DNA of 63,746 nt, filler included, from Candidatus Nanoarchaeia archaeon (lineage in GTDB: Archaea; Nanobdellota; Nanobdellia; Woesearchaeales; DATDTY01), in NCBI GenBank assembly GCA_035290625.1. It is 5 parts of 5 records of this genome, joined end to end, with 100 filler letters (N's around TTAATTAATTAA, not from the genome) between each part and the next. Parts side by side here need not be neighbours in the genome. Positions count along the whole stretch, not along the records: positions 39,294 to 51,721 come from DATDTY010000042.1; 4 more parts are not named here. The stretch is one strand, 5' to 3'. Below the pieces are notes generated by a model. It had not been told where the DNA came from. It worked only from the letters and a program-made list of their open reading frames with translations, and searched no databases. The position numbers and the translations under genes are program-made. Shown one piece after another: positions 22,379 to 62,675 of the stretch. Numbering within the stretch: position 1 is the stretch's first letter; the number at the start of each line of letters is the position of its first letter.

Positions 22379-22544
22379 AGACGCAATTGAAAAGTTATGC
22401 AGCGCCATCTTGTGAGCCATAGTATGCTGGAAGTATCACACCGACAAGAGGGTCGGCTCCTACGGAGAATGTCGGTTATCCGCCTTCTGGTGCATGGCGA
22501 ACCTGGCGCTGCCGAGCGAAGCGAGCAGCTTTTCAATTGCGCCC
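22379..22544. mobile_element. MITE-like element family A, copy 1
   Basis: TIR CGCAATTGAAAAG..CTTTTCAATTGCG; flanking direct repeat GATGACGC(AG). Confidence 0.85.
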
Positions 22545-25942: not shown

Positions 25943-26042
25943 NNNNNNNNNNNNNNNNNNNNNNNNNNNNNNNNNNNNNNNNNNNNTTAATTAATTAANN
26001 NNNNNNNNNNNNNNNNNNNNNNNNNNNNNNNNNNNNNNNNNN
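25943..26042. other. Artificial contig linker (N-run with TTAATTAATTAA)
   Basis: The same 100-nt spacer occurs four times. Confidence 0.98.
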
Positions 26043-39193: not shown

Positions 39194-39293
39194 NNNNNNN
39201 NNNNNNNNNNNNNNNNNNNNNNNNNNNNNNNNNNNNNTTAATTAATTAANNNNNNNNNNNNNNNNNNNNNNNNNNNNNNNNNNNNNNNNNNNN
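39194..39293. other. Artificial contig linker
   Basis: N-run with TTAATTAATTAA. Confidence 0.98.
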
Positions 39294-39458
39294 GGTGGCA
39301 TTGAAAAGTCATGCAGCGCCCTCTTGTAAGCCATTATAACGGAGCGGCGGCACAGCGACAAGAGGGTCGCCTCCCTCGGAGAATGTCGCTATTCTGCCTG
39401 ACTTGCGCATGGCGAACCTGGCGCTGCCGAGCGAAGCGAGCAACTTTTCAATGCCACC
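39294..39458. mobile_element. MITE-like element family A, copy 3
   Basis: Perfect TIR GGTGGCATTGAAAAGT..ACTTTTCAATGCCACC. Confidence 0.88.
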
Positions 39459-39464
39459 TTCCCC

Positions 39465-40583
39465 TCATAACGAATATATGTGTAAGGTCTCTTCTGCACA
39501 TCTCCTCCATGAGAATTCCTGTGCTGTTTTGAGGCCTTGCTTGATTCTCTTGTTTCTTAAAGAGTTGTTTTGGATGAGTTCCTGCATTTTTCTACATAGT
39601 TCATGAGGATCTTTCGGATTGAATGCGCAAGGGATTTCTTTGACAATCTCTCGGTTTGTTGGAATTTGAGATGCTAATACCGGACAGCCGCACTTCATTG
39701 CCTCTAGGATAGGGAGGCCGAAGCCTTCGTATAAGGAAGGCCAGACAAACAGCTCTGCGGTATTATAGTAGAGGACGAGGTCGGATCTTGGGATGAATCC
39801 TGTGGAGATAATGTCGTTTTTAAGATTGAGTTTTTCTATGAGTTTGAATATACATTTGTATTTCCAGCCTTTCTTTCCAACAATGATTAGTTTGTATGTA
39901 GGGTGCTGTTTTCTTATTTCATTGAATGCTCTGATGAGCGCCGGTATGTTCTTCCTCGGCTCTATTGTGCCTACATAGAGGATGAACGGAAAGGTTATAC
40001 TGTTCTTTCTTTTGAATTCGCTGATTGCTTTCCTATTCTTAATTCTTTTACAGTCGTTTTCTGCAGCTTCATAGGTTACGTGTATTTTTTTAGGGCTGAT
40101 GCGAAAAATTCTTATAATATCCTCTTTTGTGTTTTCTGATACCGTGATTATCTTATGGACATTTTTTAGTATTATTTTAAGGCCGATCTTATGCTCGAGG
40201 TATGGCAGCATGCCTTGTGTTTTTGGATAGAGCAACGGAGCGAGGTCATGGATGGTCACAATCATCTTGTATTTCTGTTTGAAGAAGAATGGCCCTATTT
40301 GTGTTGGCTCGTGAACTACGTCCAGGTTATATTTTCTTAGAAGCAACGGAAATATGATCAGTTTTCTCAGCTGCCTATAGAATGGAAATTCGTAAAGAGG
40401 GATGATGATGTGCTTTATATTTCTGTTTTTGTATATCTTATTCCTGTTGTCTTTTCTGTAATGGATTAAAAAATATTCGTTATTTTTATCGCTATTGAGG
40501 ACATTCTTAACAAGATTTCGGGTGTAGGTTGTAATGCCCGCGCCATTGTCATCGATTGAGTCGGTGATTATGCCTATTCTCAT
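39465..40583 (-). CDS. GT4 family glycosyltransferase
   Basis: TIHDL, VGTIEPRKN, EGFGLPILEAM. Confidence 0.95.
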   Translation of the reverse strand: MRIGIITDSIDDNGAGITTYTRNLVKNVLNSDKNNEYFLIHYRKDNRNKIYKNRNIKHIIIPLYEFPFYRQLRKLIIFPLLLRKYNLDVVHEPTQIGPFFFKQKYKMIVTIHDLAPLLYPKTQGMLPYLEHKIGLKIILKNVHKIITVSENTKEDIIRIFRISPKKIHVTYEAAENDCKRIKNRKAISEFKRKNSITFPFILYVGTIEPRKNIPALIRAFNEIRKQHPTYKLIIVGKKGWKYKCIFKLIEKLNLKNDIISTGFIPRSDLVLYYNTAELFVWPSLYEGFGLPILEAMKCGCPVLASQIPTNREIVKEIPCAFNPKDPHELCRKMQELIQNNSLRNKRIKQGLKTAQEFSWRRCAEETLHIYSL

Positions 40584-40647
40584 TTTTGTTTGGGAACGCG
40601 AGGCTCTTTAAAAACATTTATATATTCGCCACCACTTCTGAGGAGAG

Positions 40648-41586
40648 ATGGCCAAGAAGCAAAGACGCCGCGTTGACATTTCTCTTGTTATCCCTGTGTA
40701 TAATGAGGAGAAGAACCTTCTTTACTTGTATAGAAATATCAATCGTGCTCTTCATGATTATCACGGAGAGTACGAGATTATTTTCATAGATGACGGAAGT
40801 AGTGATGGCAGCCTTGCGGTTCTTCAGGGGCTTGCGAGAGAAAAAGATATACGGATTGTGGAGTTTCAAACCAATTACGGCAAATCAGCTGCGCTTACTG
40901 CAGGATTCAAACTGGCTCAGGGAGGGCTGGTTATAACCATGGACGCCGATCTTCAGGACGACCCAGCCGAAATCCCTCGGTTTTTGGATGAGATCCGACA
41001 TTGCGATGTTGTTGTCGGTTGGAAGTATAGGAGAAAAGATCCGCTTTCCAAGACGATTCCATCCAGGTTTTTTAATTATTCTATAGCTCTCCTAACTAAG
41101 ATCCGGATTCATGACTCAAATTGCGGGTTCAAGGCTTTTAGGAGGAGAGTGATCGAGAATATCCAGATTTATGGAGAACTCCATCGCTACATCCCGGTTT
41201 TGGCATTTTGGAAGGGATTTGAGGTAAGAGAGATGAAGATCAGGCATCATCCAAGGATTTATGGAAAATCTAAATATGGTATAGGGCGCTTATTTAAGGG
41301 GTTCCTCGATTTGATTACTGTGAAGTTTCTTATCAGCTACGGTCAGAGTCCTTTTTACTTGTTCGGTGGAATTGGAATAATCTTCAGTGTTATTGGTTTT
41401 ATATTAGGAGTTTATCTAACCACACTAAAGGTACTGGTAGGTGCCTCCATAGGCAGGAGGCCTTTATTGATATTTACAATGCTGCTTCTTGTCCTTGGTG
41501 TGCAATTCATAGGGATTGGGCTTCTTGGGGATATGGTATCTTATCAAAGGGAAAAAGAGCAATATATTGTAAAGAGGATCATTTAG
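40648..41586 (+). CDS. GT2 polyprenol-phosphate glycosyltransferase (ArnC/DPM-like)
   Basis: PVYNEE, DDGSSD, DADLQDDP, two C-terminal TMs. Confidence 0.93.
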   Translation: MAKKQRRRVDISLVIPVYNEEKNLLYLYRNINRALHDYHGEYEIIFIDDGSSDGSLAVLQGLAREKDIRIVEFQTNYGKSAALTAGFKLAQGGLVITMDADLQDDPAEIPRFLDEIRHCDVVVGWKYRRKDPLSKTIPSRFFNYSIALLTKIRIHDSNCGFKAFRRRVIENIQIYGELHRYIPVLAFWKGFEVREMKIRHHPRIYGKSKYGIGRLFKGFLDLITVKFLISYGQSPFYLFGGIGIIFSVIGFILGVYLTTLKVLVGASIGRRPLLIFTMLLLVLGVQFIGIGLLGDMVSYQREKEQYIVKRII

Positions 41587-42308
41587 ACATCGGCTTCTTG
41601 TCTAGAGGTGTCTCTTGCAAATGTTCTTAGAACAACGTGCCTTAATGGCCTATAGTAGTACGCCATCCATCCGATATTTTTGAGGATGACAAGCATTATC
41701 GAATATAGCACCAATGCATAAAGATTGATAGACTTTATTGTGAAGAATGATGCGAGTATGGGGATAAGTACAAAAGCAATTAAACGGCAATCTTCAAAAT
41801 ACATCCATTCATTGTATCTGGCATGTTTCATTTTATTCAGAGCCTCTTTATCCAGGATTAAAATGACAACCAAATGCTGAAGAGGGTGGATTAAGGACAT
41901 AAGAATAATAAAGGGCGTTAATAAGAAGATGAGTGTCTCATTAAGGTTATAGAAAAGTGCGATGGTAATCAGCGCAGTTCCGATATAGCCGGTGACCCAA
42001 TCAAAGATGCCTCCCCAGCGTGAGGATACACCCCACAGCCTTGCTAGTTTTCCGTCGACATTATCGAGAAGGAATCGCAACAGGAAAAAGAGCGCTCCGC
42101 CGATAAGATGACCGGTGATAGACAGGTAGGCGCTAAAAATGACTGCGATGAAGGAAAGGAGGGTAATCATGTTTGGAGAGAGCCGAAGTATGTTGCCAAA
42201 GACCCACCCTAATATTAAATAGGGGTAATGAAGAAACATATTTGCGCGAGGCATCGGAACTGTAGCGACACGATCCAAATCATTGAAAGTAATCCTCTTT
42301 TTTTCCAT
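41583..42308 (-). CDS. CDP-alcohol phosphotransferase family protein
   Basis: SPNMIT, DNVDGKLAR....S.WGGIFD signature. Confidence 0.92.
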   Translation of the reverse strand: MEKKRITFNDLDRVATVPMPRANMFLHYPYLILGWVFGNILRLSPNMITLLSFIAVIFSAYLSITGHLIGGALFFLLRFLLDNVDGKLARLWGVSSRWGGIFDWVTGYIGTALITIALFYNLNETLIFLLTPFIILMSLIHPLQHLVVILILDKEALNKMKHARYNEWMYFEDCRLIAFVLIPILASFFTIKSINLYALVLYSIMLVILKNIGWMAYYYRPLRHVVLRTFARDTSRQEADV

Positions 42309-42309
42309 G

Positions 42310-42417
42310 TTATTGCATCAAGAGCTTTAAATATATGAAAAATAGGATGATAGACATCCAGACCATAAGGACTGCATCAATAATGAATAGATTCAGGAGT
42401 GTGCTTAGTTCAACCAT
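42310..42417 (-). CDS. 35-aa hydrophobic peptide (not in the ORF track)
   Basis: MVELSTLLNLFIIDAVLMVWMSIILFFIYLKLLMQ fills the gap between two co-oriented genes. Confidence 0.5.
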   Translation of the reverse strand: MVELSTLLNLFIIDAVLMVWMSIILFFIYLKLLMQ

Positions 42418-42433
42418 GAGTCTCACTTGTTAT

Positions 42434-43231
42434 TTAATGCTTGGGAAGAGATTCGGCAATGCATTTTAAAATCTTTGCTTCCGTGACTAGCAGATAGGCT
42501 CTCTCACGATCAACCCGCAGATGCTTATTAATGTTAAGGTGTCTGAGCAGAAATCTTACGGCCCTATCCACTGTCTCATAGTTTACTGGTGGGCTTCCGA
42601 GCTCTCCAAGCCGTATAATCATGGCTTTCAGTAAGGCTGGGCTATTAAGGTCGTTGTCTTTCTGTTTTAACACTCGCTTGCGAATAAGGGGGGGGAATGC
42701 TTCAGAGTTTATCTGTATTTTATCAATATCGGCTTTCGCCACTTTTTCCCTGAACTCTTGTTGCAATTGCTTCTCTTGCCATCTCCTTTGAAGTAAGGAA
42801 TAGTCTATTTTGTTCCAGAATTCCCAATGGCCCGAGGGGATAGCTGAATATGGCAGGAACGCCTGTACTGGATAAACGCATGCATTTAGGTAGATGTGGG
42901 TTATGAGGCTCAGGCATGCATCTTGCCTGCTGAGGTTTAATGTCTTTTCTTGACCCAATTCGGAGATTGAGACTAGGAGGTTGTCTTTTTCCGCCTGAAT
43001 CTTGAGATATTCAAGCGAACCTTTTGAAATGTTAGTTTTCTTTCCTTTAAAAAGACAAAATGCTGCATCCAGCAATCTTGGCTGGTTTTCTAGTGTGTGG
43101 GTGTAGAGGGAATTGAAGGGTTGCAGATGGAACTGTATCCCCGGGATCAACGAGAAGAACGCATTTGACTCGTCCGCATTGCAGCTCTTGAGGATTTTTT
43201 GTGATATAAGCAGATGTGTCTTGCTATCCAT
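42434..43231 (-). CDS. Hypothetical protein, possibly a degenerate zinc-hydrolase-like fold
   Basis: MDSKTH N-terminus and LITHIYLN; weak signal. Confidence 0.55.
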   Translation of the reverse strand: MDSKTHLLISQKILKSCNADESNAFFSLIPGIQFHLQPFNSLYTHTLENQPRLLDAAFCLFKGKKTNISKGSLEYLKIQAEKDNLLVSISELGQEKTLNLSRQDACLSLITHIYLNACVYPVQAFLPYSAIPSGHWEFWNKIDYSLLQRRWQEKQLQQEFREKVAKADIDKIQINSEAFPPLIRKRVLKQKDNDLNSPALLKAMIIRLGELGSPPVNYETVDRAVRFLLRHLNINKHLRVDRERAYLLVTEAKILKCIAESLPKH

Positions 43232-43327
43232 ACAGTTTAGGGATATACTTGTGGTTTTAAATTTTTGCGTTTGGCCTGATTTCGCAGAATCAAAAATTAT
43301 ATATACTAGTAAAAGTAACGATAGTGA

Positions 43328-44860
43328 ATGGGAGAAGGAAGGAATGGTATGCCTGGCAGGAACTTCAGAGTCCTACTCATCCACGCAAATTCTTCAATGG
43401 ACACGCTGATTCCACCCAATTTGGCAACCCTTTCTGCGTGCTTAAAGAGGGCAGGGAACGAAGTCAGGCTCTTTGACACTACTTTCTACAATACGCGGGG
43501 GTTTACTGGAGATGATGCCCGGGTAAGGACGTTGCAGGTCAAGGAGACGCATTTTTCTGATTATGGAATTTATTTTAATGATACAGATATGCTCCAGGAT
43601 TTTCTGGAGATGGTTGAAGAGTTTAAGCCAGACCTCATTGGCTTTTCTGCAGTTGAGTTAACATTTAAGATGGGAATGGAAATTATTGATGCTGTGAAGA
43701 GGGTTAAGTCCGAGATTGTTGTTGCTTGCGGCGGAGCACATGCTATGACTTCTCCAGAGGACGTTATAGATGAAAGGAATATCGATATTGTCTGTGTCGG
43801 AGAGGCTGAAAATTCTTTTGTTGAATTGTGTGAAAAATTGAGAAATAAGGAGGATTATACGGGAATCCTTAATCTCTGGGTAAAAAAGGATGGCAAGATT
43901 CATAAGAATAGGCTTGGAAATCTTATCGATATGGATGATTTGCCGATGCAGGATTGGGAGATTTTTGACAGGAGAAGGATCTACAAACCCATGTCCGGGA
44001 ATATCGGAAGGACTGGATGTTTTGAGCTGACCCGAGGATGTATCTACTCCTGCACGTTCTGCATAAATGAATTCCTCAATAAGGTTCACAAGCATAAGAG
44101 TTATCGGGAGAAGAGTATCCCTAAGTTTATCGATGAGGTGAAATATTTTAAAGACAAATACGGACTTGAATATGTCTATATTCTTGCGGAGATGTTCCTG
44201 CCAACATCAAAAGAGCGCATTAGAGAGTTTTCACGCTTATGGAAGGAAAAGGTTGGGATTCCTTTCTGGTGTCAGGTGAGGGTAGAAGGGGTTGACGAGG
44301 AGAATGTAAGGCTCCTTGAGGACGCCGGCTGTGTTTCGATATCTGCAGGGGTAGAAAGCGGAAATCAAGAGTTTAGAAGGAAAGTCATACACAGGATGAT
44401 GAGCAATGAGAAGATCGTTGAGGCCTTTCGGCTTCTTAAGAACAGCAAGATGCAGATTTCAGCAAATAGTATTATTGGATTTCCTGGAGAAACAAGGGAG
44501 CAGATATTTGACACAATTGAGTTGAATAGGAAACTTGGGCTTGATAATATCATGATACATGTCTTTAACCCTTATCGCGGGACTAGCTTATATGACCTTA
44601 GTGTTGAAAGGGGGTATATCCCCCAGGACCATATGGCCGGAGATTACAGGGCTGATTTTACTCTGAATATGCCCCATATATCCAAGGAAGAGATTCTCGG
44701 ATTGCAGAGAACGTTTGTACTGTATGCCAAGTTTCCAAGAGAGATGTGGCCTGAGATTAGGATAGCTGAGAAGTTTGATGAAGAAGGGAATAAAAAGTTT
44801 GAAGAATTGAGTAAGATTTACAGAGAGAAGTTCTTTTTGGAAAAACCTGTTATGCATTAA
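43328..44860 (+). CDS. B12-binding radical SAM enzyme
   Basis: N-terminal cobalamin-binding domain (GGAHA..PE, VGEAE); RGCIYSCTFC; GVESG. Confidence 0.93.
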   Translation: MGEGRNGMPGRNFRVLLIHANSSMDTLIPPNLATLSACLKRAGNEVRLFDTTFYNTRGFTGDDARVRTLQVKETHFSDYGIYFNDTDMLQDFLEMVEEFKPDLIGFSAVELTFKMGMEIIDAVKRVKSEIVVACGGAHAMTSPEDVIDERNIDIVCVGEAENSFVELCEKLRNKEDYTGILNLWVKKDGKIHKNRLGNLIDMDDLPMQDWEIFDRRRIYKPMSGNIGRTGCFELTRGCIYSCTFCINEFLNKVHKHKSYREKSIPKFIDEVKYFKDKYGLEYVYILAEMFLPTSKERIREFSRLWKEKVGIPFWCQVRVEGVDEENVRLLEDAGCVSISAGVESGNQEFRRKVIHRMMSNEKIVEAFRLLKNSKMQISANSIIGFPGETREQIFDTIELNRKLGLDNIMIHVFNPYRGTSLYDLSVERGYIPQDHMAGDYRADFTLNMPHISKEEILGLQRTFVLYAKFPREMWPEIRIAEKFDEEGNKKFEELSKIYREKFFLEKPVMH

Positions 44861-44894
44861 TTGGAGCACGATGGATTGCCCGTTTATCAGAGTA

Positions 44895-46028
44895 TTAGAG
44901 AATCCTTGTTAGTATCCCTCTCTCTATTGTTTCGGTTACCATTACAGGATTATTGATTACTCTTTGAGGGTTGAATCCATGATCTATGATGTTTCCTAAG
45001 TCCCCCCCATGGATTCCCAATCTGCTTAATCTTGTTTCAAGGCCTATCTGCTCCATTAGACTTATGAGTTTGTCTCTCGCTTCTTCTCCGTCTTTTGCAC
45101 TTAATAAGCTGAGTAATTCTGAAATGCGAGTTTTAACAGTATCTATTGCCAGCCCATTCTGTATGTTTTCCGGAGTTACATTTTCATTGATTGGAAAGAA
45201 ATAAGGAAGAGTAAGCATAACTGCGTGGCCATGGGGGATATTGTGGTATGCTGTTAATGGATAGGATATGGCATGCGCTGCTGTTGTTTTTGCTATGGCT
45301 ATCGATTTTCCTGCGAGATGGGCTGCATACATCATTGCTGCACGATTTTCGGGGGTTGGAGCATTAACAGCTTGGACAATATTGGAAAGAATGATAGGGA
45401 TTGCCTCCCTGCTGTATTGCCTTGATTCCTCTGTTGATTTAACAGACCATAATCCCTCTATGGCTTGCGCAAGAGCATCCACTCCTGTTTGAGCTGTGAT
45501 TTTTGGCGGGAGGGAATAGGTCAAAGATGGGTCTAAGAGGATATGTTCAGGGACCATACTAGGGTGAGCGAGAGAGTATTTTGTTTTATCAATGTATACA
45601 ACTGCAAATGGCGTTATTTCAGCTCCTGATCCGGAAGTGGTTGGAATGAGTATTCTTGGAAGATTGCTTCCATTTGCTTTTATTTTTGCGGTTATGTATT
45701 CTTTGATGGGCATTGTTTCTTTGTAAAGCAATGCTGCTGCTTTAGCTATGTCCATAACCTTCCCGCCACCGACTGCTATGATAAAGTCTATATTATTTTC
45801 CCGGATAAGGGTTATGGTCTTCCGGACGTCTTCTATTGATGGAATTTGATTGCGCGTTGAAGCATAGGTTACCCTATAGCCTTTAAGTTGAGGGCTGATG
45901 AGCTTCTCTGCTCCTGAGGCATAATACGAATTCTCTCCATTTAATAGGAGGATAGAGTGAGGCTTCTCTTTTTGGAGTATGCCTGCTATTTCATTTAGGG
46001 GGCTGGGATTTTCATATACGACTGCCAT
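44895..46028 (-). CDS. Phosphonoacetaldehyde reductase (iron-containing ADH, PhpC/FomC-like)
   Basis: GGGKVMD, PTTSGSGAEIT, HAISYP, PHGHA; adjacent to the decarboxylase. Confidence 0.88.
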   Translation of the reverse strand: MAVVYENPSPLNEIAGILQKEKPHSILLLNGENSYYASGAEKLISPQLKGYRVTYASTRNQIPSIEDVRKTITLIRENNIDFIIAVGGGKVMDIAKAAALLYKETMPIKEYITAKIKANGSNLPRILIPTTSGSGAEITPFAVVYIDKTKYSLAHPSMVPEHILLDPSLTYSLPPKITAQTGVDALAQAIEGLWSVKSTEESRQYSREAIPIILSNIVQAVNAPTPENRAAMMYAAHLAGKSIAIAKTTAAHAISYPLTAYHNIPHGHAVMLTLPYFFPINENVTPENIQNGLAIDTVKTRISELLSLLSAKDGEEARDKLISLMEQIGLETRLSRLGIHGGDLGNIIDHGFNPQRVINNPVMVTETIERGILTRIL

Positions 46029-46032
46029 AGGT

Positions 46033-47166
46033 TTAGCCTCTTGAGATATACTCCATAAATGCTTTTTTGTTTTCTATTGGAGTTATTGTGGGTCTTCCAA
46101 GATTGACCCTTGCTCCTTTGTTGATTTTGATTTCCAATAAAGATGGGCCGTCGATTGATTGAAGCAGACTTAATTTGCCCTTGATATCCTCAGGGGTTTC
46201 TGCGCATGCTGTGCTAGTATAACCGCAAGCTTTTGCGATAGCCGGAAGGTCTATGTTGAATGCTGCAGTAGGTTGCCCGCCGACAGAATCATGAGACCCG
46301 TTATTGAAGATGATATGCCTTAAATTCTTTGGTTTCTTATCGCCGATTATTGCAAGCACGCCCATATGCATTATTACGGCGCCGTCACCATCGAAGCAGT
46401 ATACATTTCTGCCAGGCCTTGATAGGGCGATGCCTAAAGCAATACTTGAGGAATGCCCCATAGAGCCAACGGTAAGAAAATCCTTTTTATGATCATGGCC
46501 GAGTTCTTCCCTAAATGCAAATACTTCCCGAGATGCCTTTCCTGTCGTGGATACTATGATATCATCATCCTTTAGGTTCCCTGCAATCAATTTTATTGCC
46601 TCTTCCCGGCTTAATTCAAATTTCACTTTTGTTTCGCTCTTAAGAGGGTATGCATTGAATGTTCCTTCTCTAACAACAAGCGCATAAGGAGTATTGCTAC
46701 CCTTCATTGAAGAATATGCCTTATCTACGGCTTCCTTCAGTTCTTTCCCCTCCTGCGGCAGGATGGAATAAGGTATCCCCAGCGTGTCTAACTGATCCAG
46801 GGTTATCTTTCCCATCTTTTTGTGCTGTGGCTCATCTTCGCGTTCTCCTCTCCAGCCTATAACCAACAGCACGGGAATGCTGTAAACGTCTGCATCTGTA
46901 AGCGAGGTTAAAGGATTGACGCAATTTCCCAAGCCAGAATTCTGCATGTAAACTACTCCGATCTGTTTGGTAGCAAGATGGTAGCCTGCTGCTAGCGCTA
47001 TTGCGTTTCCCTCATTTGCGCAGATGATATGATTTTTTGAATTGTCTGTGATGTAGGCACAAAAATGTGCCAGCAGCGAATCTGGGACCCCCGTAAATAA
47101 ATTGCTTCCGTTCTCTATAATGGATTCGTAAAGTATTTTTGCATCGATCATTTTATTCCTTTTCAT
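46033..47166 (-). CDS. aepY: Phosphonopyruvate decarboxylase
   Basis: GVPDSLL, NEGNA, YMQNSGLGN, EPQH, GSMGH, DGDG, HDSVGGQ. Confidence 0.96.
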   Translation of the reverse strand: MKRNKMIDAKILYESIIENGSNLFTGVPDSLLAHFCAYITDNSKNHIICANEGNAIALAAGYHLATKQIGVVYMQNSGLGNCVNPLTSLTDADVYSIPVLLVIGWRGEREDEPQHKKMGKITLDQLDTLGIPYSILPQEGKELKEAVDKAYSSMKGSNTPYALVVREGTFNAYPLKSETKVKFELSREEAIKLIAGNLKDDDIIVSTTGKASREVFAFREELGHDHKKDFLTVGSMGHSSSIALGIALSRPGRNVYCFDGDGAVIMHMGVLAIIGDKKPKNLRHIIFNNGSHDSVGGQPTAAFNIDLPAIAKACGYTSTACAETPEDIKGKLSLLQSIDGPSLLEIKINKGARVNLGRPTITPIENKKAFMEYISRG

Positions 47167-47187
47167 CTCCTCGGCATTTTTATTAGG

Positions 47188-48501
47188 TCATTTGCTTGCA
47201 GGTATCAAGGTGATTGTCTCTTTTATGGGATAGCATACCTCATTTGCCTCATGGCATCTTTCGTGCTTTAATATGAGTTTTGCTGTCTCCACCATTGCAG
47301 GATATGCGCTTCTCAGCATATGGTTTGCATAGATGACAATATTCACGCCAGCGTCCGCCAGTTCTCTTTCGGTGATATGACTATAGGTACTGGGCACCGC
47401 CACTAATGGCACTCTCTGCTCAAATTTGGCATAGAGATTGCAGAATTCAAGCACTTCCTTGGCGTTATCTGCCTTGCTGTGAATCATAATTCCATCTGCT
47501 CCTGCTTTTATATATGCTTGAGCCCTTTTTAGAGCGTCTCCATGCCCCTTCCCAAGGATTAGACTTTCAATCCTTGCAATAATCATAAAATCATCTGTGA
47601 CTTGTGCGTTCTTTCCTGTTTTTATCTTTCCGCAGAAATTCTGCACGCTATCTTGGGTTTGGCCTGCTTCGGCCCCGAAAAGGGAGTTCCTCTTTGCTCC
47701 GGTCTTATCTTCAATGATTACTGCTGAAACTCCAAGCCTTTCAAGTGTCTTAACCATGAATCCAAAATGCTCTGGCAGCCCTCCGTCGTCACCATCAAAG
47801 ATAAGTGGTTTTGTCGTTACCTCAAATATTTGATCTATGGTGTGCACCCGAGAACTTACATCTACAACTTTTGTGTCTGGCTTGCCTTTGGCAGTTGAGT
47901 CTGTCAGGCTGCTTGCCCACATTCCATCGAATTCTTTTACGTTGTCTCCTTCAATTAGCTGTGTGGTCTCAACTATTCTCCCTGTCAGACCGTTATGCAC
48001 TTCCATGATCCTTACAATTGGCTTAAGTTCTAATAATTTTTTTAGTTTCCTTAGGCGTATTTCGGGTGTTGTTCCTATCGCATTCATCCTACTAACTATT
48101 TGACTTGAAGAAATGTCTTTTGTATAGTCAACTTCTACAAGCTTCCCACCCCATTCCCTTAATACCTCAATTACTTTTGCCCGTGTTTCCTTTTGGGTGC
48201 CGGTTCTCCAATCAGTGCCGTGAACAACGTAGTCCGGCCTCATTTTTTTTAGGTTAGGAAGATAATCCAGAGATGCTTGCGGGATTACCTTTTCTATGCC
48301 TTTAATATTCTCAATTATTCTTTTTCTTTGTTCGTATGAGAGAAGTGGGAGGCGTTTATAGCCTGCCAATGCCATATCTGTCATCAAACCAACAGTTACT
48401 TCCCCTAATTTTCGTGCATTCTCTATAATATTTATATGCCCGTGGTGGATGATGTCAGCGGCCATGCTGACATATACCTTTGCTTTTTTCACTTCGCTCA
48501 T
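47188..48501 (-). CDS. aepX: Phosphoenolpyruvate mutase with N-terminal cytidylyltransferase domain
   Basis: HHGH CTase motif; PepM signature [17 protein letters not shown]. Confidence 0.97.
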
Positions 48502-49226
48502 GCTTTTCTCTCTATTCGATTATTAGCGTATATCTGATTATTAGCGCGTTTGAGATCCTCTTGATTGTCTATTTCCATACAGAATCCGTTATAGTACAAT
48601 GGATGCATTTCTATTTCGCTGCTTAATTCATTCAACGCGTTCTCAGCATATTCCGAAACCCTTCCATTTGATATGAATTCACAGATTTTCCTCATCCAAA
48701 GAAGAAAATGTTCTTTTGATATCCGATAGATTGGTGCACAGAAATATGCCCCTTCTCCAAAGATATCCACCCCGATCTTTGCAATGCGTCCATCTATCAC
48801 TCTTGCCTTGAAATCTTTATCAGGAAGCTGAAGATTCTTGGCAAGAGGTATTGAAGTTACCTCTTGCTTAAGAAGGTTTGACAGTATGCTTTTTTCAAAG
48901 AGCAGATCTCCGTGCATAAATATCACATCTTCATTTATCAAATGGTGTGTGAGCCAGAGTGAGTAAATATAGTTGGTTTCTTTATACTTGCGATTCCTGA
49001 CGTATGTAATTGAGATTTTCGGAAAATTCTTTCTTACGTACGACTTGATCTGGTCCTCAAAGGGTCCTGTGGTGATTATTATGTCTGTGATGCCACAGGC
49101 AATTAACTCCCTTAATTGATGGCCAAGAATTTCAGTTCCGCCAACTTTGATCAAACATTTAGGAGTGTTGCTTGTCAACGAATTTAGTCTGCATCCCCGT
49201 CCAGAATTGACAATGATGGCCTTCAT
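48498..49226 (-). CDS. LicC/PntC-like nucleotidyltransferase
   Basis: MKAII..SG.G.RL...[25 protein letters not shown]. Confidence 0.88.
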
Positions 49227-49328
49227 TCGGCTTTGAGTGCATGGCCTATTTAAAAGCGTTCCACCGAAAACCTTAAATAGGATGCTGGCAACTTCCTGCA
49301 ATCTTTAAAGAGTTTTTCGGAGTGCTCT

Positions 49329-50921
49329 ATGGAACCGTTGCTGAAAAAGAAAGTCTTGCTTGTCAATCCAAAGCCTATGTCTGATAATTTCAGCAGCGGC
49401 CTTCCCATCGGACTTTTAGCTCTTGCTTCAGTGATCAGAGATGAGTACGAGGTTAAGATTGTTATGGCAAGACCTATGAGAGATTATTACAAAGAAGCCC
49501 TTAATTTTCTTGATGACGATACATTATGTGTAGGATTTAGTGTGATGACTGGTTATCAGATCACTGATGCTATCAATATTTGTAAGCTCATTCGAAAGAA
49601 AAATCCAAAGGTAAAGATTATTTGGGGAGGGGTGCATCCAACACTCCTTCCTGAGCAGACTGCAAAGAGTGAATGGGTCGATATTGTTATAAAAAGCTAT
49701 TGCGAGACTGCATTCAGGGAGATTGTTGATTGTTTAGCTCAGCACAAACCTTATGCTGATGTCAAAGGTATTGTTTACAGGGAAGGAAGCAATGTTGTGA
49801 GCACGCCTCCGCGCGTCATGGACGATCCTAATGATCTCCCAAGGATGCCTTACGAACTTGTAAGCGAGAGGATTTTGAATAATGATCTCGTCGATGATAA
49901 AACTGTTGAATATATAAGCAGCAGAGGATGTTTTTTTGAGTGCGCCTTTTGTTTTGAGATTAAGATGAGCCAAAAGGTTTGGAAAGGTCTTTCTTCTGGT
50001 AGAGTGCTAGATGATTTTGAATGGTTATCTAAGATATATGGTATAAAGAAGATTCGAATGCTTGACAGCCTGTTTTTTACAAATAAAAGAAGAGCTAAGG
50101 AGATATTCCAAGGGATTGTAGATAGAAAGATTCCAATAAGATTAGAGTTTCTGAATGGGAGAACGAGACAGTTGAATATGTATGAGCCCGAAATGTGGGA
50201 ACTGATGAAGAAATGCGGAGTGATTGAGTTTCTTGTAGGAGCGGAATCGGGAACTGATGCTGTGTTAGAGTTGATCAATAAAGGATGCAGCGTAGAAGAC
50301 ACAAAGAAACTTGTCAGAACATGTAATAAGTACGGATTGAAGGTTATTCTTTCATGCATGACTGGACTTCCTCAGATCCCCGGCTTGAGGATGAAGGAGG
50401 AATTTAATTCAACGCTGGATCTTATTGCCTATGCGTGGAGCATTAATTCTAATAATGATGCGTACCTTATACCCTTTACACCGTATCCTAACGGAACTGC
50501 GCTTTGGAATCTCTGTGTAAAGAACGGATATAAGGAACCCCAGACTTTGGAGGGGTGGGGAGAGGTGGAATCGTATCGGCATAATACTCCGTGGGTGCCG
50601 AGGAAGTACAAAAGATGGGTTCAGATGATTCAGTATGATTATATCTTTCCGTTCATAAATGGGAGCATAGAAAGATATTGGCTTCCAAAAGTAAAGAGAT
50701 TCAAACCAGTTGCAAAGATTGGCTACAAAGTTGCCTTATCTGTTGCTAGGTTTAGGTTTAGGCATAAGTTTTTTTATTTGCCTGCTGAATGGTATCTTAT
50801 ACGACTCTATAAATACTTACGAACGAAGCAAGAAGACAAAGTCAGATTAGCTGAATTACAAGGACGTGGGCTGGATTCAAAGCTTGATACGCTTATTTTT
50901 TCAAAAGCCGAGGCAAAATAA
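49329..50921 (+). CDS. B12-binding radical SAM enzyme
   Basis: PIGLLALAS, WGGVHPTLLPE, SRGCFFECAFC, GAESG. Confidence 0.93.
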   Translation: MEPLLKKKVLLVNPKPMSDNFSSGLPIGLLALASVIRDEYEVKIVMARPMRDYYKEALNFLDDDTLCVGFSVMTGYQITDAINICKLIRKKNPKVKIIWGGVHPTLLPEQTAKSEWVDIVIKSYCETAFREIVDCLAQHKPYADVKGIVYREGSNVVSTPPRVMDDPNDLPRMPYELVSERILNNDLVDDKTVEYISSRGCFFECAFCFEIKMSQKVWKGLSSGRVLDDFEWLSKIYGIKKIRMLDSLFFTNKRRAKEIFQGIVDRKIPIRLEFLNGRTRQLNMYEPEMWELMKKCGVIEFLVGAESGTDAVLELINKGCSVEDTKKLVRTCNKYGLKVILSCMTGLPQIPGLRMKEEFNSTLDLIAYAWSINSNNDAYLIPFTPYPNGTALWNLCVKNGYKEPQTLEGWGEVESYRHNTPWVPRKYKRWVQMIQYDYIFPFINGSIERYWLPKVKRFKPVAKIGYKVALSVARFRFRHKFFYLPAEWYLIRLYKYLRTKQEDKVRLAELQGRGLDSKLDTLIFSKAEAK

Positions 50922-51010
50922 AGAAAACCGAACGCATCCGCGGCCTAAAGGTCCTGGTTTTTGATAGTGCGATTCTCCAGACAAGAAAATTGCGGAGCGA
51001 TTTTCTGCCC

Positions 51011-51068
51011 GTGACCTCCTCCTGCGCAAACTGAACACTACGTTGTGATATGCATCTTGGTTCTTGAT
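51011..51068 (-). mobile_element. Decayed IS200 right-end relic lacking the terminal hairpin
   Basis: Aligns to 39053-39133 with the CCCCGCCC/GGGCGGGG hairpin deleted; encodes IKNQDAYHNVVFS. Confidence 0.75.
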
Positions 51069-51379
51069 GGAGGCCAAGAACCACCATTGTCGTGTGTAAG
51101 GGAATAGAGGATTATGCATGGACATTCGCAACGAATATTCATTTCAAGACTCGAGTAGAATATATCTGGCGATACAAGAGAAGATAACAAATAGAAACAA
51201 ATTTCAGAGTAGAAGATGATGGGAGGATTAAGAGCAAGAGTTGCTCTTATCTAATCGGGTATTTCTACTTTCTCGTGAGTTTATGGCTCCATCTCCTTTG
51301 GATTGTCAATAAGAATATTAACCCTTATGTTCCGTATAAGAAATATCTGGATATTGTTGAGCAGAGGCTCACGTTAGAG

Positions 51380-51665
51380 TATCTGGAGCTTCATGGAATT
51401 TGAGGCGACGCTATAGCGTTAGCTTTCATGGAATAGCAAGAAGCAGGGGGTGGAAAGGAATATCTGGGACTAATCTCTGATCCTAATGCACCTACGTATC
51501 CTCTAAGTGTATGAGGGGGGTGCTTAGAGACTATATGGAATGAGAACGTTCGTCTGTAATCGGAGATGCTGGGTCAGAACCGGCTCGATTGCAAGTTAAC
51601 TCACAATTAGAAAGATTTAAGGGGGCTTCAGCCCCCATCTAATGGATAGATGGGGGTGGTGGAGA
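51380..51665 (+). pseudogene. Possible heavily degraded tnpB with right-end hairpin
   Basis: Broken frames WKGI..., YVSSKCMRG, RTFVCN..C, followed by CCCCCATCTA-ATGGA-TAGATGGGGG. Confidence 0.35.
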
Positions 51666-51721
51666 CCCCACAATGCGAAAGAGAACATATGATGTAGACC
51701 TTAATAAAGTTGTTGCTAAGA

Positions 51722-51821
51722 NNNNNNNNNNNNNNNNNNNNNNNNNNNNNNNNNNNNNNNNNNNNTTAATTAATTAANNNNNNNNNNNNNNNNNNNNNNN
51801 NNNNNNNNNNNNNNNNNNNNN
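51722..51821. other. Artificial contig linker
   Basis: N-run with TTAATTAATTAA. Confidence 0.98.
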
Positions 51822-60195: not shown

Positions 60196-60295
60196 NNNNN
60201 NNNNNNNNNNNNNNNNNNNNNNNNNNNNNNNNNNNNNNNTTAATTAATTAANNNNNNNNNNNNNNNNNNNNNNNNNNNNNNNNNNNNNNNNNNNN
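60196..60295. other. Artificial contig linker
   Basis: N-run with TTAATTAATTAA. Confidence 0.98.
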
Positions 60296-62469: not shown

Positions 62470-62675
62470 GGTGGCATTGAAAAGTCATGCAGCGCCCTCT
62501 TGTGAGCCATCTTAAAATAAGACAGCAGAGCGACAAGGAGGTTGCCCCCTTCGGGGAATGTCGCTATTCTTCCTGACTTGCGCATGGCGAACTGCTCCGC
62601 AGGAGCGACCAAAAATGCGAAGCATTTTTGAGTACTGGCGCTGCCGAGCGAAGCGAGCAACTTTTCAATGCGACC
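62470..62675. mobile_element. MITE-like element family A, copy 4 (with 42-bp insertion)
   Basis: TIR GGT(G/C)GCATTGAAAAGT; perfect 8-bp TSD GTGAAAAA (62462-62469, 62676-62683). Confidence 0.9.

Follow-up and report, generated by a model that had tools for sequence, protein, structure and literature searches.

A B12-binding radical SAM enzyme group linked to phosphonate synthesis in a gene cluster of a woesearchaeal archaeon

We analysed a stretch of 63,746 nucleotides (the window) from the genome of a Candidatus Nanoarchaeia archaeon of the order Woesearchaeales (GCA_035290625.1). It comprises five contigs of one bin, and a phosphonate gene cluster takes up the entire contig C42 (DATDTY010000042.1). 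One gene of this cluster, rSAM_A, encodes a B12-binding radical S-adenosylmethionine (SAM) enzyme, and we found that it belongs to an uncharacterised group of cobalamin radical enzymes that is firmly linked to phosphonate synthesis. This group is the new element of the cluster, and the core of the pathway is known. In the reading we prefer, at about an even chance of being right, the cell makes cytidine monophosphate (CMP)-activated 2-hydroxyethylphosphonate (HEP), which rSAM_A would methylate on carbon with scavenged cobalamin before it is attached to a glycan of the cell surface or to a scavenged lipid alcohol. The genes directly concerned are the following.

43328-44860, plus strand: rSAM_A, B12-binding radical SAM enzyme, predicted CMP-phosphonate C-methylase; member of the pepM-linked group with the DYR motif
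44895-46028, minus strand: iron-containing alcohol dehydrogenase (Fe-ADH; PhpC/FomC role), predicted to convert phosphonoacetaldehyde to HEP; best model TIGR03405, below cut-off
46033-47166, minus strand: phosphonopyruvate decarboxylase (Ppd); TIGR03297 485.5 bits, cut-off 312.5
47188-48501, minus strand: fusion of a cytidylyltransferase (CTase, PF01467) and a phosphoenolpyruvate (PEP) mutase (PepM), Fom1 architecture; TIGR02320 393.6, cut-off 319.55
48498-49226, minus strand: MobA/LicC-like nucleoside triphosphate (NTP) transferase, PntC-like; likely start ATG at 49226, longest open reading frame (ORF) from TTG at 49301

B12-binding proteins abound in the order, occurring in 31 of 41 genomes, and this genome has eight of them; adjacency alone therefore means little. 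The distribution of rSAM_A is more telling. A total of 593 relatives were found at E<=1e-100, about 25 of them 72-85% identical. Among the other genomes of the order, pepM is present in four of the five with an rSAM_A orthologue (>=50%) compared to 15 of the 395 without one (Fisher p 1.8e-5, from kin that are not independent; three candidates scored per genome). Tallies over the 401 genomes of the order include nine unpublished genomes, and the loci named here rest on none of them.

To place rSAM_A among its relatives, we used 160 loci with an alignment, namely the top 80 from a set of 228 and the top 80 from a set of at least 463. In the FastTree phylogeny of these loci, rSAM_A falls in a 91-row group (SH support 98) marked by D439-Y440-R441; Y440 and R441 occur in 99% of its rows and in 0% of the 69 others, making DYR a simple marker of the group. 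A 42-row IQ-TREE supports the subgroups of the window's copy (95/96 for 24 rows that include bacteria). Genomes with DYR in their best locus carry pepM in 46 of 63 cases, compared to 0 of 16 without DYR. This count covers 79 of the 80 GTDB loci, with L098 excluded as the second piece of one genome and one pepM-negative genome (G447) counted on both sides. All 16 proteobacterial genomes in the tally are pepM-positive, and because these carriers are kin, p-values overstate the link. In the two archaeal-rich subgroups, PepM, Ppd, 2-aminoethylphosphonate (AEP) transaminase or Fe-ADH is found in 21 of 34 loci (12 of the 14 loci of at least 10 kb). Core phosphonate genes are found in none of 58 sister loci, a set that omits the L008 homologue, the second copy in L102 and the duplicate L087.

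The link extends to single proteins and operons. Two proteins (P0048 and P0056) are Ppd-rSAM_A fusions and L021 encodes an rSAM_A-AEP transaminase-methyltransferase fusion, with each partner above its cut-off in every case. In L039, L102 and L165, rSAM_A is set within the pepM-ppd run and shares its strand. The sister groups adjoin NeuA/NeuB and other CMP-sugar genes, including CMP-sugar cytidylyltransferases, a hint that substrates linked to CMP are recognised by the wider family.

These data also bear on an alternative in which plain CMP-HEP is made for the surface, and rSAM_A either alters the sugar or lipid that serves as acceptor or simply travels along in a surface island. The abundance of B12-binding proteins in the order, the CMP-sugar pathways beside the sister groups and the genomes that hold just one of rSAM_A and pepM (below) would all suit such an enzyme. 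Fusions of rSAM_A to core phosphonate enzymes, which are of two kinds, and its position inside the operon at several loci argue against this alternative. So does the exact agreement of the pepM split with DYR, though a phosphonylated acceptor would give the same split. We regard this alternative as unlikely, while giving it serious weight.

Several observations weigh against a simple picture of rSAM_A as the C-methylase of a HEP pathway. Fifteen of the 19 other pepM genomes of the order have no rSAM_A orthologue among the three candidates scored in each, and rSAM_A is therefore accessory. Conversely, 17 of the 63 carrier genomes have no pepM match, including Brocadiales with adjoining Ppd and AEP transaminase. 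The DYR group as a whole reaches a support of just 86/71 in the 42-row tree, and the split is not clean: L008 is a long-branch, 33% identical homologue 8 kb from pepM, and L102 contains a second copy. AEP clusters accompany the group as often as HEP clusters (AEP transaminase in 7 of 34 loci, Fe-ADH in 8 of 34), and the bacterial pepM loci that were fetched have AEP transaminase in 9 of 16 and Fe-ADH in 0 of 16; the group is therefore not HEP-specific. In most bacterial members the gene lies far from pepM. Finally, in C42 itself rSAM_A stands on the strand opposite to the four-gene phosphonate run, as does a second B12-binding radical SAM gene, rSAM_B, and both are therefore outside its operon.

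The bacterial members (L041-L082; Scalindua, Rhodospirillales, Gammaproteobacteria) have a neighbourhood of their own: a TIM-barrel gene resembling xylose isomerase stands upstream in 49 loci, the downstream gene is often a beta-hydroxyacid dehydrogenase or LPG-synthase-like, and pepM is usually distant. This dehydrogenase was considered as a Psf3-like enzyme, Psf3 being a family of 2-oxopropylphosphonate reductases; no such entry was recognisable among its 22 PDB matches. In Brocadiales and one metagenome contig (L044, L055, L057, L128), a split Ppd (alpha/beta), an AEP transaminase and an NTP transferase are found near the rSAM_A homologue, yet genomes G416, G425 and G427 gave no pepM match at 1e-60; their pepM may be divergent or distant, or they may use a sulfonate analogue of the route. 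Three loci (L033:11494-12147, L037:5550-6200 and L113:493-1122) encode a protein of about 210 aa beside rSAM_A with a weak MtrA/dihydropteroate-synthase-like match. On plasmids, rSAM_A has no match at 1e-40.

The core of the cluster (NTP transferase, CTase-PepM, Ppd and Fe-ADH) corresponds to a common, predicted CMP-HEP route of known type. Its four genes form a tight minus-strand run, with an overlap of 4 bp followed by gaps of 21 and 4 bp. PepM and Ppd score above curated cut-offs, and the EDKxxxxxNS motif of PepM is intact, at 264. The CTase domain matches PDB 5x3d (E 2.4e-52), which is the CTase part of a PEP-mutase fusion, probably Fom1. Two nucleotidyltransferases are found at ppm, with PF01467 fused to PepM and PF12804 adjacent, and the NTP transferase is 43-52% identical to the NTP gene of six pepM loci. 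Fe-ADH adjoins ppd and scores 172.5 on TIGR03405, compared to a cut-off of 423.7. The genome yielded no AEP-transaminase orthologue, which makes HEP the likely branch.

By family, PepM would convert PEP to phosphonopyruvate and Ppd would convert this to phosphonoacetaldehyde. Judging from its family and position, Fe-ADH may then reduce the aldehyde to HEP, and the fused CTase and/or the PntC-like NTP transferase would add CMP, as the likeness to the Fom1 CTase suggests. The original prediction had named ten genes on C42 and proposed the PepM-Ppd-Fe-ADH-CTase route to CMP-HEP: all ten are present as intact ORFs of the families it gave, and the matches support the route. It overstated the likeness to fosfomycin synthesis as something special. 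CTase-PepM fusions make up 23.6% of Ppm proteins (PMC6697681), and pepM occurs in 20 of the 401 genomes of the order at E<=1e-40, so that the core is present in about 5% of them. The 19 other pepM loci of the order contain Fe-ADH in 14 cases, some B12-binding radical SAM gene in 8 (within the stretch fetched) and a CDP-alcohol phosphotransferase in 6, and others have sulfatase-like or LicD proteins. A stand-alone PF01467 protein of about 180 aa with the N-terminal motif NKSNGQLC(V/I)T(I/V)P often precedes CTase-PepM in the order (15 loci; L008-L017 and others); C42 does not carry it.

Next, we considered the reaction of rSAM_A. The protein matches PF02310 and PF04055 above their cut-offs, its G135-G136, E159 and C238/242/245 are invariant, and the CxxxCxxC, GG and GE motifs are intact; GG and GE are described for base-off cobalamin binding (PMC9204698, in the part available). 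On its sequence we assign rSAM_A to the class B cobalamin-dependent radical SAM enzymes. Its structural model (pLDDT 93) matches TsrM, AprD4, MgmA, OxsB, CysS and TokK at 14-19% identity. By analogy with Fom3, from which we infer both reaction and site, rSAM_A would abstract a hydrogen with the 5'-deoxyadenosyl radical and add a methyl group from methylcobalamin, most likely at C2, to give CMP-2-hydroxypropylphosphonate. A methylase of CMP-2-substituted ethylphosphonates would fit both HEP and AEP routes.

It is also possible, though we think it unlikely, that rSAM_A acts on a CMP-phosphonate without Fom3-type C2 methylation, either methylating C1 or carrying out non-methylating radical chemistry such as dehydration, deamination or oxygen-free C1-C2 scission to methylphosphonate. 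The same linkage and fusions would support such an enzyme, and a position shared by HEP and AEP, such as C1, would suit a group that accompanies both routes. The fold of rSAM_A matches the non-methylases AprD4 and OxsB as well, the dehydratase AprD4 is its best PDB sequence match (81 bits) and the non-methylase HpnJ is its top family model (136, cut-off 578), all of which count against a methylase. Nevertheless, the AprD4 and HpnJ matches are weak, most annotated radical SAM enzymes that depend on cobalamin seem to be methylases (PMC9204698, in the part available), and both HEP and AEP have an abstractable hydrogen at C2, so C2 methylation fits both too. Methylation on phosphorus would require a phosphinate route, and the CPEP mutase model scores 47.9 of 420 on PepM. 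Kinship with PhpK, which the original prediction had raised for comparison, is not borne out, with rSAM_A at 91.9 and rSAM_B at 77.1 on TIGR04479 (cut-off 600). The Sden_1168 family (NF038361, cut-off 575) was likewise rejected, at 89 for rSAM_A and 47.8 for rSAM_B. At the far end, rSAM_A might represent an unrecognised cross-domain family, ranging over DPANN archaea, Omnitrophota, anammox bacteria, Rhodospirillales and Gammaproteobacteria, with new radical chemistry on CMP-HEP or CMP-AEP and, in the extreme, an O2-free C1-C2 cleavage that replaces MpnS; we consider this improbable.

We return to CMP-HEP methylation followed by transfer to the cell surface, on which the remaining genes of C42 bear.

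39465-40583, minus strand: GT4 glycosyltransferase, 372 aa (PF00534)
40648-41586, plus strand: GT2 polyprenyl-phosphate glycosyltransferase (ArnC/AglJ-like), 312 aa, with two hydrophobic C-terminal segments
41583-42308, minus strand: CDP-alcohol phosphotransferase, 241 aa, candidate phosphonate transferase (PF01066)
42434-43231, minus strand: all-helical protein of 265 aa, no known family; relatives adjoin Ppd in four other loci
49329-50921, plus strand: rSAM_B, divergent B12-binding radical SAM enzyme with no shown phosphonate link

The glycosyltransferase and membrane phosphotransferase neighbours, together with AglB encoded on contig C49, support the surface destination that had been predicted for the product. 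The CDP-alcohol phosphotransferase would likely attach the phosphonate to its acceptor, presumably a glycan of the surface or a lipid alcohol that the cell has scavenged. No other PF01066 member was found in the genome. The family is present in 232 of the 401 genomes of the order, which counts against its significance and makes it a weak marker; as a marker of phosphonate genes it was set aside (16 of 19 pepM genomes compared to 215 of 381 others, p 0.017, weak). Geranylgeranylglyceryl phosphate (GGGP) synthase (PcrB family, PF01884) was not found in the genome by a search that found it in 7 of 14 controls. The idea of an archaeal lipid made by this cell is accordingly not supported, and, with the lone PF01066 protein found in the genome on C42, a glycan or a scavenged lipid is a likelier acceptor than archaeol made by the cell itself.

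The predicted need for scavenged cobalamin is supported. Two class II (B12) ribonucleotide reductases are encoded (C51:46919-48559 and C15:15194-17323) and CobS was not found in the genome, so the cobalamin must come from outside. Neither a BtuF-like binder nor a PduO-type adenosyltransferase turned up in the genome, which counts against the reading we prefer.

Both radical SAM genes had originally been put forward as phosphonate candidates. The proposal stands for rSAM_A, given the 46/63 to 0/16 split and the fusions, and is not supported for rSAM_B, which has no significant link. The best relatives of rSAM_B are 38-39% identical, with none above 39%. As a pathway member it was rejected: pepM is present in 2 of 13 matching genomes of the order (p 0.12), and PepM, Ppd and Fe-ADH are found in none of the seven fetched loci of its relatives (L198-L204). 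Relatives of 28-31% identity in the pepM loci L021 and L022 are a weak residual sign. We conclude that rSAM_B is probably one of the eight general surface-locus B12-binding radical SAM enzymes of this genome and outside the pathway. A second group of B12-binding radical SAM enzymes, not present in the window, recurs in pepM loci (L009, L015, L018, L020, L022, L165); it is nearer Sden_1168, the L009 copy reaching 318.5 of 575 bits.

The family of the 265-aa protein has 79 representatives with conserved H6, D33, H40, H45, H112 and D116, three of which are changed in the C42 copy. Its relatives beside Ppd are in L044 (246-1121), L057, L118 and L128. Pfam gave no match in 51 members of the family, and there was no usable Atlas match. 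The model is confident (pLDDT 95), and a Foldseek search with it gave no match at E<=0.001; the best Z was 4.0. From these results it does not follow that the protein lacks kin or that its fold is new. The family could be a metal-dependent phosphodiesterase.

With functions like those of Fom1, Fom2, FomC and Fom3 all represented, the cluster might be thought to make a free small-molecule phosphonate, for example a fosfomycin-like antibiotic. Fosfomycin synthesis requires FomD and Fom4 (PMC8158854 and PMC9088020, in the parts available). The FomD family DUF402 (PF04167) was not found in the genome, rated 100% complete, by a search that found it in 7 of 14 controls. No HppE-like cupin (Fom4 epoxidase) was found either, using no HppE-specific profile; the lone Cupin_2 match in the genome is a frame of 129 aa, which in the PDB matches unrelated cupins. 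The genome-wide cupin search thus agrees with the original remark that no epoxidase is visible, and as neither FomD nor an epoxidase was found we conclude that the cluster is not for fosfomycin synthesis. Glycosyltransferases and a membrane phosphotransferase neighbour the cluster, and flippases and glycosyltransferases surround related loci. Together these make any free phosphonate product very improbable.

C42 (positions 39294-51721, 12,428 bp, GC 0.417) is joined to the other contigs of the window by N spacers with a 12-base linker (25943-26042, 39194-39293, 51722-51821 and 60196-60295), and gene order across these is artificial. The RNA-polymerase and PheS genes of the window are on contigs other than C42. 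The bin (G000) has 1.37 Mb in 84 contigs, a completeness of 100% and a contamination of 1.14%, and its RpoB and RpoA' score above archaeal cut-offs in a profile search. Both ends of C42 are repeats.

39294-39459, strand not assigned: multi-copy hairpin repeat of about 165 bp at the left contig end; 141-bp exact overlaps with contigs C67 and C45, raised depth
51582-51721, plus strand: 5' end of a multi-copy IS5-like element at the right contig end, common to contigs C49 and C25

The left-end repeat, predicted as 'family A', was confirmed, with matches on 28 of the 83 other contigs of the bin, and the window has copies of this family (about 165-210 bp) at 39294-39459, 22386-22537 and 62470-62675. 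The left 141 bases of C42 are identical to the ends of C67, whose ORFs resemble the archaeal-type translation factors EF-1a, EF-2 and aIF2g (judged from ORF starts), and of C45, which carries a flippase, glycosyltransferases and carbamoyltransferases. At the right end, the transposase fragment scores 98.9 bits on NF033579, under the cut-off of 140; the element occurs in full on C49, which also encodes AglB, and its other ends lead to C50 (PheS, rpL14e), C41 and C74. An 'IS200 relic' had also been predicted. This label was not confirmed: what we found is a short hairpin repeat (near 50920-51005) that resembles copies on C55 and C33 at 79-84%, together with a remnant full of stops, which has no second copy.

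Could C42 be mis-binned from a bacterium? It has no marker gene, its GC is 0.417, and it ranks 59th of 61 contigs by tetranucleotide distance from the genome mean (r 0.86). Against this stand the exact overlaps of 140-141 bases between both its ends and other contigs of the bin, including C67, and the exits of the IS element to C50, C41 and C74. Where named, the nearest relatives of PepM and of rSAM_A come from Ca. Woesearchaeota, Nanoarchaeota or unclassified archaea, and L005 carries the same gene run within a 572-kb contig of another member of the order. In run X1, possibly the source sample, the unique part of C42 has an even depth of 16-17, and depth reaches about 90-110 at either end, in keeping with the repeats there. 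Mis-binning is therefore unlikely, indeed very much so, and the archaeal origin that had been proposed is borne out by shared contig-end repeats and archaeal relatives.

If our preferred reading holds, a group that tracks pepM in archaea and several bacterial phyla would point to an undescribed alkylated phosphonate on microbial surfaces, most likely 2-hydroxypropyl- or 2-aminopropylphosphonate. Fom3-type chemistry would then serve the cell envelope rather than antibiotic synthesis, environmental phosphonate pools would hold a further class of compounds, and a reduced-genome archaeon would spend scavenged cobalamin on its coat. Should O2-free C1-C2 cleavage be true instead, it would be an MpnS-independent source of methylphosphonate in anoxic waters and aquifers.

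A literature search on DPANN, phosphonate and PEP mutase found no report, most subscription papers lying outside its reach; for Woesearchaeota and phosphonate there was nothing on this topic by title or abstract start. No pepM-linked family of B12-binding radical SAM enzymes besides Fom3, PhpK and SD1168 was found in the literature covered. One radical SAM gene flanks ppm-ppd in Campylobacter (PMC8942020). The P-methyltransferases PhpK/BcpD and Sden_1168 share B12-binding and radical SAM domains in a phosphonate context. Unlike them, C42 has no phosphinate route, and rSAM_A reaches 91.9 of 600 and 89 of 575 on their models.

Closer in setting is the surface-modification cluster of Borgs (bioRxiv 10.1101/2024.11.05.622173, in the part available), which shares a PEP-mutase/cytidylyltransferase fusion and a CDP-alcohol phosphotransferase among archaeal surface-glycan genes. 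Unlike C42, it is of the AEP-transaminase type, and the terms 'radical SAM' and 'B12' are absent from the main text of that preprint. The early fosfomycin pathway of Streptomyces (Fom1 CyTase-PepM, Fom2, FomC and Fom3; PMC8158854 and PMC9088020, in the parts available) shares with C42 the CTase-PepM fusion, Ppd, Fe-ADH, a class B cobalamin radical SAM enzyme and the predicted CMP-HEP intermediate. It differs in having FomD and Fom4, which were not found in the C42 genome, and in lacking the extra PntC-like transferase, CDP-alcohol phosphotransferase and glycosyltransferases. rSAM_A also accompanies AEP routes, and its likeness to Fom3 is one of predicted function. Finally, PntC/Ppm surface tailoring (PMC6697681) and the 'Burkholderiales CDP-OH' phosphonolipid family (PMC8942020) share PepM, two nucleotidyltransferases and a CDP-alcohol phosphotransferase, with a CMP-phosphonate as the donor for surface decoration. 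C42 probably represents the HEP branch rather than the AEP branch, in an archaeal host in which no GGGP synthase was found, and it has a B12-binding radical SAM enzyme where those clusters have a 2-oxoglutarate/Fe(II) oxygenase.

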